Source: an uncultured delta proteobacterium (lineage in GTDB: Bacteria > Myxococcota > Myxococcia > Myxococcales > Anaeromyxobacteraceae). From it: a stretch of 64,000 nt of DNA. A model generated the notes under the pieces. That model was given only the letters and a program-made list of their open reading frames with translations. It was not told the DNA's origin and ran no database searches. Positions 48,149 through 51,100 of this stretch are shown here, piece after piece (position 1 is the first letter of the stretch; the number at the start of each line of letters is the position of its first letter). Made by a program: the position numbers and the translations under genes. The stretch lies in contig CAVYBH010000012.1 in NCBI GenBank assembly GCA_963766715.1, forward strand, positions 320,001 through 384,000, written 5' to 3'.

Positions 48149-51100
48149 CTACTGCGGCACCGCCGAGGCGGCGACCAGGTCGAGAACCAGCCCGCCGGAG
48201 GCCGGGTCGATCCGGAATCCGAAGCGGGAGAGCACCTCCGGCTGGAACCATCCGGTCTCGAGGACCCGCGTCCCCCGGGCGCGTTGCCGCCGGGAGAGCT
48301 CCCGCATGATGCCGTCGGCGATGCCGAGGCCGCGGTGCTTCCGGCTCACCACGATCTTCTCCATGTGGGTCCGCTCCGGCGACACCTGCCGGTAGAAGAC
48401 GCCGCCGATGACCGCGTCGTTCCCGTCGACGGCGATGAGGTGGCGGTGCTCGGGCTCGAAGGTGACCTCCAGGGCGGACTCCTGGAAGAGCTGGAGCAGC
48501 CGGGCCACCTCTCGCGGGGACCGGGCGGCCCGGACGGAGTAGCGTTCGCCCTTCGAGTCGGTGAGGCCGACCACCACCTCGGCGGTGATGTGGTCGCCGC
48601 GCTCCAGCGAGATGAGCGAGGTCTCGTCGCCGGGCCGGAGGTGGCGGAAGGTCATCCGGGCGAGGAAGTAGTCCTCGCGTGCGTCGGGCCGGACGGCCTC
48701 CCGGAGCGACGCCAGCTGGTCGCGCAGGTCGAGGCCGCGGTAGGGCAGGGAGCGGGCCCGGGCCATGAGCCGGTCGAGCGCCGCCGCCAGCGGTTCCCGG
48801 GCGTCGGCGAAGACCGTGCGCCGGAAGAAGCGGATCCGGGTGTCCGGCCACTCCCGCTCGGTCTCGCCGAGCTTGTAGGTGGTCCAGAGCTCGCCCAGCA
48901 TGGTGCCCTGGGCCTCCTGGGTCGCGTTGGGGTTGAGCGCCAGCCAGCGACGGAAGCGCTCGGACGCGAAGTGGACCGGCCGCGACGTGAAGCCGGTCGC
49001 GTCGACCTTCGCCAGGAAGGCCAGCGCCGCCTCGGCGCGGGGCCCGGGCTGGAGCGAGGAGAGGACCGTCCGCGCGCGGTCGAGCCCGAGCGCCTCGACC
49101 ACCGCCGAGAACCGGAGCGTCGGGATCAGGCCGCCCACCAGGTCCGGGTACTGGGCCTCGGTGGGCTGGACGAAGGCCTTCTCGAAGCGGTCGAGGACGT
49201 CGTCGAGCTGCTCGACCGAGCCGCGGTCGGAGATGGACACGAGCCGCGCGCCGGTCTGGTAGTCGTGCGAGGGCACGATGAAGGCCGCCGGGGAGGGATC
49301 GCGGAGCGCCACGCGGCGCCCGGTCCGGTCCCAGAAGCCCACGTGGGCGGCGAGTCCGGTCCAGACCAGGAAGGGCCACTGGTTGCGGAGCCGGCGCCCC
49401 TCGCCCTGCTGGAGCAGGCGGGCCAGCTGCTGCTCGACGTTCTCCCCGGGGATGAACTCCTCGGTGTAGATGCCGAAGTCGGGGTGGTAGCTGCCGAAGG
49501 CCTCCACGAGCGGGGGCGGGGCGCCGGAGGAGAGCAGCCACATCACCTCGTCGCGGAGCTCGGCGGGCGGCATGGTCTCGGCGTGGTTCACCGCGAAGTC
49601 GTAGGTCTCGCGCGAGCGGGTGGTGATCGACATCCGGTAGACCGACTTCCCGAGGCGCCGCCCGAGGAGCGTGATCACCGCGCCCCCGGGAGGGATGTCG
49701 GCGAGCGAGATGAGGGCGCCGTTGCCCAGCACGAAGGCGGAGCTGCGCACGAAGGTCGACTCGGTGATGGCCCGGAGCACCAGGTCGCCGGTGCGCGGGG
49801 GCATGGGGCCGTCGAAACGGACCACGTCACGCCAGGTGTATTCCTCCCCGGTGGCCGGATCGATGGCCAGGCGGAGGTTGGGTCCCAGCCAGTGCTGGAA
49901 CCCGCGGCGGAGCCGGTCGTACTCCTCGCCGGCGCGCGCCGACAGGATGGCGTCCGGGTGGAAGGTGAGGCGCGCGAGCGGCACCCGCACGCGCGCGTAC
50001 CAGGCCGGATGCGAGAGCGAGTAGGCGACGGCGAGTCGCATGGCGCCCGCCAGCAGCCGCCGCTCGGAGGCCTCCTGATCGGGGTCGAGGGCGCGGGGCG
50101 CCTGCAGGGCGTCGAGCAGCGCGTCGACCTGGGCCTCGGAGAGCCCCTTCTCGCCGAAGGAGACGAGGTCCTCCTCCCGCAGCGCCTGCGGTCCGAGCCG
50201 GTCGAGGAAGAGCCGGAGGGTGTCGACGGTGCGTCCGGGCTCCTCGAAGGGGAGCAGGCTGCGGAAGGCGCGGCGGCGGACCTCCTCCTCGGGAGAGTCG
50301 GCGCCACGCCGCAGGAGCCCCCGGGCCAGCGGCGCCAGCTCGCGACGGCCGGTCTGGAGGACCCGCTCCAGGTGGGAGAGGGCGCGGCGCGCCTCCGGAC
50401 GCTCGGCGCGGAGGAGCTCGCCGGACGCGTGGACGGACTCGACGGACGGCTCGTCCCGCCCGGCCGCCTCGACCAGGGCCGGGAGCCGCTCGGGATCGGG
50501 CGATTCCCAGACGCGCGAATCGAGGCGGACCTCGCCGGCGCCCTTGGGGCGCCGCACGGCGAGGGTGCGGAACGCCTCCTCGCCGAGGAACCGCCGCAGC
50601 CCCTCGTTGCCGAGCCAGAGGGTGGGGTGGGCCAGGATCGAGCCCAGGTCGACGTGGCCGCCCTCGGGCCGGTAGGCGAGGTCGCCCACGCGGAGCGAGC
50701 CCGGCGCGCGCGGGTCGACGCCGATGCGGAGGCTGGCCCCGCCGGCGCGGAGCTCCCCGCCCCGGACCACCACGTCCTCGATGAGCACGCCGATCTCGCG
50801 CAGCACCCAGTTCGGGATCCGCAGCCCGATGCCGTCGACCGACAGGGAGAGGGCGCGGTGCTGGTACATCCCGTCGACGAGCGACTGCCAGTTCTTCTCC
50901 ACGACGTCGCGCTTGAAGGTGCCCTTGTGGGTCAGCTCCCCGTGCTCGGCGTCGAGGGCCCGATCGAGGATCCGGAAGGCGACCACCCGCTCGAAGGGGG
51001 CGAGGAAGCGGTTGGCCGACGCGACCAGGGAGGAGACCAGGTGCTGCATCTCCTCGGGGCTGCGCTGCCGGAGCTCCGGACGCCCCTCGTAGTTCGGCCA

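Follow-up and report, generated by a model that had tools for sequence, protein, structure and literature searches.

A highly diverged, predicted protein-kinase-like domain lies between an acyl-CoA ligase and a GNAT domain in a 1551-residue protein whose family spans Anaeromyxobacteraceae and other bacteria

Pat-type acetyltransferases such as Salmonella Pat, E. coli PatZ/YfiQ and Streptomyces PatA are large proteins that combine a GNAT domain with an acyl-CoA-synthetase-type domain and regulatory mass. In PMC8556138, the fused domain of Pat is described as an inactive NDP-forming synthetase that senses acetyl-CoA, and GNAT lysine acetyltransferases are described as regulators of AMP-forming acyl-CoA synthetases that act via the C-terminal catalytic lysine of the latter. 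Bacterial pseudokinases are few, and our literature search returned no paper on a family that joins an acyl-CoA ligase, a kinase-like domain and a GNAT domain, nor one that places a pseudokinase between the two enzymes. Here, we analyzed a 64,000-nucleotide stretch of DNA (the window; positions 320,001 to 384,000 of contig CAVYBH010000012.1, assembly GCA_963766715.1) from an uncultured delta proteobacterium of the family Anaeromyxobacteraceae, in which a gene on the reverse strand encodes a protein of 1551 amino acids (aa) that starts with an acyl-CoA ligase of the AMP-forming kind and ends with a GNAT acyltransferase domain. A preliminary description, made from the sequence without database searches, had proposed a cryptic kinase-like domain and helical repeats between these two ends. 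As judged from structure prediction, aa ~1002–1257 form a highly diverged bilobal protein-kinase-like (PKL) domain, and several residues on which kinases rely for catalysis are missing from it.

We modelled aa 650–1425 with AlphaFold2 (AF2) without templates, using an alignment of 83 sequences (the protein and 82 homologues), and obtained a mean predicted local distance difference test score (pLDDT) of 94.8 and a predicted template modelling score (pTM) of 0.90. The elements of the N-lobe follow one another in kinase order (beta1 1042–1050, beta2 1053–1061, beta3 1067–1075, alphaC 1080–1093, beta4 1103–1107, beta5 1112–1116), and the same order continues through the hinge and C-lobe (alphaD 1123–1132, alphaE 1136–1160, beta6 1165–1167, a short turn, beta7 1175–1176, beta8 1187–1188 and further helices). 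The model thereby shows the features of the PKL superfamily, namely a bilobal fold with a five-stranded N-lobe and alphaC, a hinge, a helical C-lobe and a beta6/beta7 catalytic loop. Searching the PDB with the whole 776-aa model, Foldseek found 17 matches at E ≤ 0.001, and all rows listed were kinases (PI3K (PI3Kgamma), Vps34, Rio1, Rio2, PRPK, RNase L and GRK2). VIA-align of the Foldseek candidates ranked Bud32 highest (4ww7_A, Z 13.4, root-mean-square deviation (rmsd) 3.8, 209 of 237 residues, model positions 355–604), followed by PRPK (Z 13.1), Rio1 (12.6), choline kinase (11.8) and MTR kinase (11.5). A search independent of Foldseek, run over 48,161 representative chains, listed 50 rows, every one a kinase or phosphotransferase by title, with Bud32 (Z 13.0, rmsd 3.7, 206 residues aligned) and then YihE (Z 12.6) in the lead. 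The preliminary description had expected a PKL fold at about aa 1030–1250 and had named any other kind of structure as an outcome that would speak against it. That outcome did not occur: the fold is placed at aa ~1002–1257, and the matches listed by the structure searches are all kinases. On the predicted structure, the domain stands nearest to Bud32/PRPK and RIO, which are small atypical kinases.

The PKL domain is undetectable by Pfam and profile searches. No Pfam family matched aa 650–1425 or aa 1001–1286 at E ≤ 10, and the models Pkinase (PF00069), RIO1 (PF01163), APH (PF01636), Kdo (PF06293) and ABC1 (PF03109) matched none of 32 homologues at E ≤ 1. Searching PDB sequences with phmmer gave no kinase and no meaningful match for aa 650–1425, and the family profile gave no match among PDB sequences at E ≤ 10.

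The seven motif strings quoted in the preliminary description all lie, in the order claimed, in one frame of the open reading frame (ORF) 48149–52804 (reverse strand) and fall on the AF2 elements expected of them (Table 1). Their nucleotide coordinates agreed with ours except for two: EEFIPGENV ends at 49436 rather than 49442, and the catalytic-loop string at 49274 rather than 49289. We derived residue equivalences from profile–profile alignments (hhalign, local mode) and predicted strand positions, not from superposition, and counted residues in a 68-sequence family alignment that covers aa 1000–1262 and homologues down to ~21% identity. In the alignment with Ser/Thr kinases, EEFIPGENV corresponds to MELLxGETL, and "ri.p..psP.NViVP" to "vvHRDLKPsNVfl"; the third Gly of GxGxxG faces K1053, and the beta3 Lys faces A1071. 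The alignment with RIO kinases pairs "PGDPSPxNV" with "HGDLSpyNV" and "G.RivSis" with "GPvvIDfPQ", and the latter pairing puts S1190 at the position of the metal-binding Asp.

The three losses noted in the preliminary description are borne out in this protein: Ala and Asn stand at 1071 and 1073 where the beta3 Lys is expected, A1174 replaces the catalytic-loop Asn and S1190 the DFG Asp. The motifs are moderately conserved among the 68 sequences (for example, P1172 in 58 and R1057 in 61). A Lys occurs within aa 1069–1074 in only four of them, and position 1190 is Ser in 58 and Asp in none, an equivalence taken from a non-significant alignment. The HRD-like D1169 is present here and in 19/68 members overall, Asn is found at position 1174 in 49/68, and the two coincide in 13/68. 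In this protein and its Anaeromyxobacteraceae relatives, the sequence at the loop includes ALR(D/E), with an acidic residue at 1169 and Ala at the Asn position. A conserved Gly-rich GxGxxG motif was not found in the PKL domain. Because none of the 68 family sequences carries the full canonical set of catalytic residues, phosphotransfer by the usual mechanism appears unlikely across the family. With no DFG Asp in any of the 68, a beta3 Lys in four and Ala in place of the catalytic-loop Asn, these sequence comparisons support the designation of the PKL domain as a putative pseudokinase. The term as first proposed fits the three residues absent here, and fits less well with the D1169 that this protein retains and the Asn that most homologues keep.

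DUF6206 (PF19709) was considered as a specific relative of the PKL domain and rejected. Its protein Atlas feature scores were 0.96–0.97, yet no hidden Markov model match to it was found in the window's own genome (E ≤ 1), and hhalign against five myxococcal DUF6206 proteins gave a probability of 0.2% (P 0.35) with an alignment that was not co-linear. Separately, DUF6206 proteins of other Myxococcota display kinase-like motifs by eye (GYGEIS, ACKRLP, DAQLSNW, YLDVTTP) and resemble an intact atypical kinase family, with hhalign against Ser/Thr kinases reaching only P 0.049.

Upstream of the PKL domain, the preliminary description had seen a HEAT/ARM-like stretch, and the helices are there in both AF2 models (~11 at aa 771–973), although the match proved generic. 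The second model, which covers aa 650–985 (pLDDT 94.8, pTM 0.91), also resolves a beta-rich part at aa 650–750. The best Foldseek matches of the solenoid were designed armadillo-repeat proteins and importin alpha (E from 1.1e-3, probability 1.00), none of them at E ≤ 0.001. VIA returned V-ATPase subunit H (Z 9.8, 115 residues aligned), the tepsin VHS/ENTH domain, API5 and karyopherins with Z from 9.8 to 8.2, values that fall below the noise level of Z ~13 that VIA states for helical repeats. The repeat models of Pfam gave no significant match (of 32 homologues, one matched HEAT_2 at E 0.14 and one matched an ARM model at E 0.027, the best values seen). We therefore describe aa ~771–973 as an apparent ARM/HEAT-like alpha-solenoid only at the generic level. 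The beta-rich subdomain before it is the best-conserved piece of the unannotated middle region, with P664, G707, Y711 and N733 invariant; it has no sequence match, no structural match covers it, and its best protein Atlas score (0.77) gave no lead. The helical bundle behind the PKL domain conserves A1280, R1283, W1287, Y1310, R1323 and T1330. Together, the beta-subdomain, alpha-solenoid, PKL domain and helical bundle make up the middle region, which AF2 predicts as one confident body.

Many of the overlapping ORFs of the window are spurious on account of its G+C content of ~72%. ORF 48149–52804, by contrast, can be taken as a genuine gene because hundreds of full-length homologues of the same size exist, and these match the 1551-aa protein in both length and architecture. 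The N-terminal part belongs to the ANL acyl-CoA synthetases: it has both AMP-binding domains, the core motifs TSGTTGxPKG, GYGMTE and TGD are conserved across the family, and the A10-type lysine K627 is kept in 66/68 homologues. Among NCBIfam models, those for FadD11 and long-chain fatty-acid-CoA ligases score best, but none reaches its equivalog cut-off. At the other end, the GNAT Pfam match spans aa ~1430–1523, the glycines G1467, G1468 and G1494 are conserved, and a Gcn5 match is weak (E 0.053). Both catalytic ends thus look apparently intact, as far as conserved motifs tell. Current annotations of the family go no further than the names "GNAT family N-acetyltransferase" and "long-chain acyl-CoA synthetase".

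Table 1. Features of the ligase–GNAT gene, motifs of its middle region and the adjoining synthase-like gene (window coordinates)
Feature	Residues (aa)	Position in window	Strand	Basis and remarks
Whole gene: ligase / beta-subdomain / alpha-solenoid / PKL / helical bundle / GNAT	1551 aa	48149..52804	-	Stop codon included; ORF list and translation
AMP-binding (ANL adenylation) N-terminal domain	118–488	51341..52453	-	Pfam PF00501, E 9.4e-66; core motifs invariant or nearly so in family
AMP-binding C-terminal subdomain (AMP-binding_C_3), A10-type Lys K627	533–649	50858..51208	-	Pfam PF23562, E 2.9e-09
Beta-rich subdomain	650–750	50555..50857	-	AF2 strands and conservation
ARM/HEAT-like alpha-solenoid (generic likeness)	771–973	49886..50494	-	~11 helices in two AF2 models
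16-residue helical-stretch string	836–851		-	Inside alpha-solenoid
Degenerate protein-kinase-like domain (RIO/Bud32-like), predicted	1002–1257	49034..49801	-	AF2 pLDDT >90; structural matches
Gly-rich-loop equivalent, with K1053 and R1057	1047–1057	49634..49666	-	Falls on beta1/beta2
FAVN	1070–1073		-	beta3
ELRDEV	1082–1087		-	alphaC
EEFIPGENV	1115–1123	49462–49436	-	beta5/hinge/alphaD (1112–1132)
Catalytic-loop equivalent, D1169 kept, A1174 at Asn position	1167–1177	49274..49306	-	beta6, catalytic loop and beta7 (1165–1176)
beta8/DFG equivalent RLVSISD, S1190 at metal-binding Asp position	1187–1193	49226..49246	-	hhalign against RIO; after predicted beta8
Helical bundle between PKL and GNAT	1258–1385	48650..49033	-	AF2 helices; conservation
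GNAT acyltransferase domain	~1394–1551	48152..48625	-	Pfam PF00583, E 5.1e-06, and related GNAT models
HMGL-like + HCS_D2 (homocitrate/isopropylmalate-synthase-like) neighbour, downstream		47000..48134	-	Pfam, NCBIfam, tblastn

The architecture is constant in a large family. A HMMER search of representative proteins gave 321 matches at E ≤ 0.001, and the best 150 of these are mostly ~1500–1600 aa long with identities down to ~21%. AMP-binding, AMP-binding_C_3 and GNAT domains occur in all of the 32 diverse members examined, whereas Pfam kinase models match none of the 32. In a phylum sample of 201 genomes, the gene was present in 16/16 other genomes of Anaeromyxobacteraceae, the family of the window's own genome, and in 0/184 others. 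When one genome per species was scanned, 591 of 599 pattern matches proved to be relatives, and the top-ranking 80 came from Anaeromyxobacteraceae, Thermoanaerobaculia, Holophagae, Gemmatimonadota, Calditrichia, Melioribacteraceae, Cytophagia and Caldisericaceae. Acidobacteriota are among the phyla represented. Only 19 short, domain-sized matches were found by the word-index method, which may miss distant ones, and because all 19 are 44–92% identical we read them as probable fragments of the same family and not as free-standing relatives of the domain.

We then analyzed the 8-kb flanks of the best 80 of the 591 relatives. A citrate synthase of the eukaryote-type Si class (TIGR01793, 622.9 bits against a cut-off of 619.75) lies within 8 kb in 19/80 loci. 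These loci come from myxobacterial, Gemmatimonadota, Melioribacteraceae and Acidobacteriota records, and their arrangements differ, as the synthase gene may share the strand, either upstream or downstream, or be convergent. A gene with HMGL-like and HCS_D2 domains occurs in 38/80 loci, all of the Anaeromyxobacteraceae type, and in all 38 it sits downstream on the same strand, as it does in the window. Either one or the other was found in 53/80 loci, and many of the loci with neither have truncated flanks. The neighbourhood points to the acetyl-CoA/citrate junction, by association only. For the HMGL-like neighbour, the best NCBIfam match is homocitrate synthase, below the cut-off; Re-citrate synthase is another possible identity, and our search found no paper linking that enzyme to Anaeromyxobacter.

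In the window, the HMGL-like gene is split near 47460, with tblastn matching 48134–47460 in frame -3 and 47461–47000 in frame -1, as would follow from a frameshift or an assembly indel. A dihydroxy-acid/6-phosphogluconate dehydratase gene at 45081–46978 (forward strand) is also divided between frames, with profile positions 1–157 in ORF 45081–45902 and positions 151–315 plus the C-domain in ORF 45641–46978. Frame breaks at two sites no more than 3 kb apart suggest that the assembly contains indel errors; the 4.6-kb target gene is intact nonetheless.

Taking these observations together, we consider it probable that the PKL domain is a diverged kinase fold without canonical phosphotransfer machinery, that is, a pseudokinase, and that the middle region is a non-catalytic module in a ligase–GNAT enzyme. 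Most likely, the middle region acts as scaffold or sensor of an enzyme, so far uncharacterised, that activates and transfers acyl groups. It would hold the AMP-forming acyl-CoA ligase together with the GNAT domain at the C terminus in fixed geometry, and the nucleotide-cleft remnant of the PKL domain may sense a ligand; Pat-type enzymes, whose GNATs carry large fused regulatory domains, would offer a parallel. The allosteric hub between acyl activation and acyl transfer that the preliminary description proposed is a hypothetical role. The predicted fold, the missing residues, the constant architecture, the phylogenetic spread and the gene neighbourhood are results of the analysis; we infer that the PKL domain does not catalyse, that it scaffolds or senses, and that the protein acts at the acetyl-CoA/citrate junction.

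Several observations weigh against this reading. Aligned by hhalign with 11 domains of Ser/Thr kinases that the window's own genome encodes, the family profile is co-linear over 198 columns, yet the probability is 4.4% and P 0.0092, which is not significant; with 14 RIO kinases of relatives the values are 0.6% and P 0.095, likewise not significant. A control alignment of RIO with Ser/Thr kinases reached 96.5% against <5% for the domain; true kinase families therefore lie far closer to one another than the PKL domain does to them. In and near the cleft, R1057 (61/68), D or E at 1069 (57/68), D1181 (63/68) and S1190 (58/68) are strongly conserved, and the subfamily that includes this protein keeps both D1169 and K1053, the latter where the Gly-rich loop would have its third Gly, the site of the catalytic Lys in WNK kinases. 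Polar conservation of this kind would be as compatible with a non-canonical active site or a site for ligand binding as with a role in structure alone. That the middle module appears rigid is an AF2 prediction (pTM 0.90), and the citrate synthase of the window's own genome is on another contig, unlinked to the gene.

The alternative that we rate highest, although we hold it only tentatively and think it rather unlikely, is that the PKL domain is a docking module that presents an acyl acceptor to the GNAT domain, the acceptor being a protein (such as citrate synthase, the HMGL-like synthase or the ligase's own A10 lysine) or a small amine, so that the protein would be a self-sufficient make-and-transfer device at the acetyl-CoA/citrate junction. 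Such a device would account for the acetyl-CoA-condensing enzymes that flank 53 of the 80 loci and for the recurrence of citrate synthase in varied arrangements across phyla, yet neighbourhood by itself is no proof of an enzyme–substrate relation, and the unlinked citrate synthase of the window's own genome counts here as well. In its favour is also the regulation of AMP-forming acyl-CoA synthetases by GNATs through the C-terminal catalytic Lys of the synthetases (PMC8556138). K627, moreover, is nearly invariant (66/68). Its surroundings, however, differ from PxxxxGK, the sequence context of Pat substrates.

Less probable still, in our estimate, is that the PKL domain is alive, as an atypical enzyme or as a sensor of a nucleotide or acyl-adenylate that uses non-canonical residues (K1053 or R1057, D1069, D1169, D1181, S1190) and couples the ligand state to the ligase or the GNAT domain. 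Pseudokinase folds can perform other chemistries, as in the AMPylation by SelO and the glutamylation by SidJ. The cleft residues R1057, D/E1069, D1181 and S1190 are retained in 57–63 of the 68 members, above most of the domain, a basic residue opposite the third Gly of GxGxxG is present in 37 (Lys in 22, Arg in 15), and the catalytic-loop Asn persists in 49. Set against this conservation are the complete lack of an acidic residue at the DFG position (0/68), the scarcity of D1169 (19/68) and of its combination with N1174 (13/68), the A1174 of the 1551-aa protein itself and the absence of a conserved GxGxxG from the domain. We regard as improbable the more far-reaching version, in which the degenerate kinase fold would be a working ligand sensor or atypical catalyst that reads the adenylate or CoA state of the ligase and gates the GNAT domain, and the whole would be a self-contained acyl-CoA-making device that acylates a target where the citrate cycle begins, for example citrate synthase or the HMGL-like equivalent.

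That the motifs resemble those of kinases by chance, in a mere alpha/beta linker without a kinase fold, would explain why sequence methods are blank (zero Pfam families, no kinase by phmmer against the PDB, zero family-profile matches at E ≤ 10, hhalign <5%), but this idea is very improbable and already contradicted by the high-confidence AF2 model (pLDDT 94.8), by predicted secondary-structure elements in kinase order and by two independent structure searches with only kinases in their top lists (Z 13 over ~206–209 residues).

Other genes of the window were also recorded. A multi-haem NapC/NirT-type cytochrome gene lies at 56313–57725 (reverse strand), ~3.5 kb upstream of the target, and a NapC/NirT-like gene is found in the 8-kb flanks at 6/32 loci examined (Anaeromyxobacteraceae-type, Holophagae and Thermoanaerobaculia). 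An agmatine deiminase gene (PAD_porph, 41875–42906, reverse strand) adjoins an 840-aa ORF at 42908–45430 (reverse strand) that contains a 2OG-Fe(II) oxygenase region and a carbon-nitrogen hydrolase, an unusual fusion that forms a polyamine-type pair with the deiminase. In a 1196-aa ORF at 38186–41776 (reverse strand), the sole Pfam match is a C-terminal DUF4833 (E 4.7e-28), and the remainder is unannotated.

The family described here is large and multi-phylum, and it is universal in the sampled Anaeromyxobacteraceae. Because its genes repeatedly adjoin acetyl-CoA-condensing enzymes, it may mark a new control point of central carbon metabolism. If the far-reaching version were true, in which the kinase fold senses or catalyses and the protein acylates a citrate-cycle target, the family would be a novel type of acylation regulator in bacteria, with a pseudokinase at its core.

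Compared with known systems, individual parts of the middle region find counterparts in several. The solenoid (aa 771–973) has its top structural matches among ARM/HEAT proteins (designed armadillo proteins, V-ATPase subunit H, API5 and karyopherins), without a significant repeat Pfam signature. PI3K/Vps34 gave the lowest Foldseek E for the 776-aa model (2.1e-4, 613–770 aligned columns), and in these kinases, as in the 1551-aa protein, an alpha-solenoid directly precedes the PKL domain; however, with TM-scores (template modelling scores) of 0.15–0.20 and an rmsd of ~20 Å, the domain order and folds match and the assembly does not, and the 1551-aa protein is without a lipid-kinase catalytic motif. 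WNK kinases offer a parallel for K1053, which lies in GKSVYR at the third Gly of GxGxxG by hhalign, although only 22/68 members have it. The DFG Asp and the Asn of the catalytic loop are retained in WNKs, whereas the 1551-aa protein has S1190 and A1174.

Bud32/PRPK, of the KEOPS complex, and RIO1/RIO2 are the best structural matches of the PKL domain (Z 13.0–13.4 for Bud32, 13.1 for PRPK, 11.8–12.6 for Rio1 and 11.6 for Rio2). Like them, the predicted domain is compact and bilobal without a long activation segment, and its catalytic loop, xxDPSPxN, resembles the HGDLSxxN of RIO. It differs in its sequence, with ~10% identity and no RIO1 or Pkinase Pfam match, in its lack of the beta3 Lys and of the metal-binding Asp (S1190), and in being embedded in a 1551-aa enzyme instead of free-standing.

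The closest parallel for the protein as a whole is with Pat-type acetyltransferases, which are likewise large and likewise tied to acetyl-CoA metabolism (PMC8556138). The fused synthetase here is not the inactive NDP-forming kind but an ANL ligase of the AMP-forming class in which every core motif is conserved, and Pat lacks the alpha-solenoid and putative pseudokinase. Of the features by which PMC8556138 defines Type I/II Pat-like lysine acetyltransferases, the GNAT domain is present, but the synthetase joined to it is an AMP-forming one of the ANL type; the five-type scheme of bacterial GNAT acetyltransferases in PMC8556138 has no type that combines an AMP-forming ligase, a solenoid and a pseudokinase. 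By analogy, the whole protein would nevertheless work most like the Pat-type enzymes, as a GNAT acyltransferase joined to a large regulatory domain.

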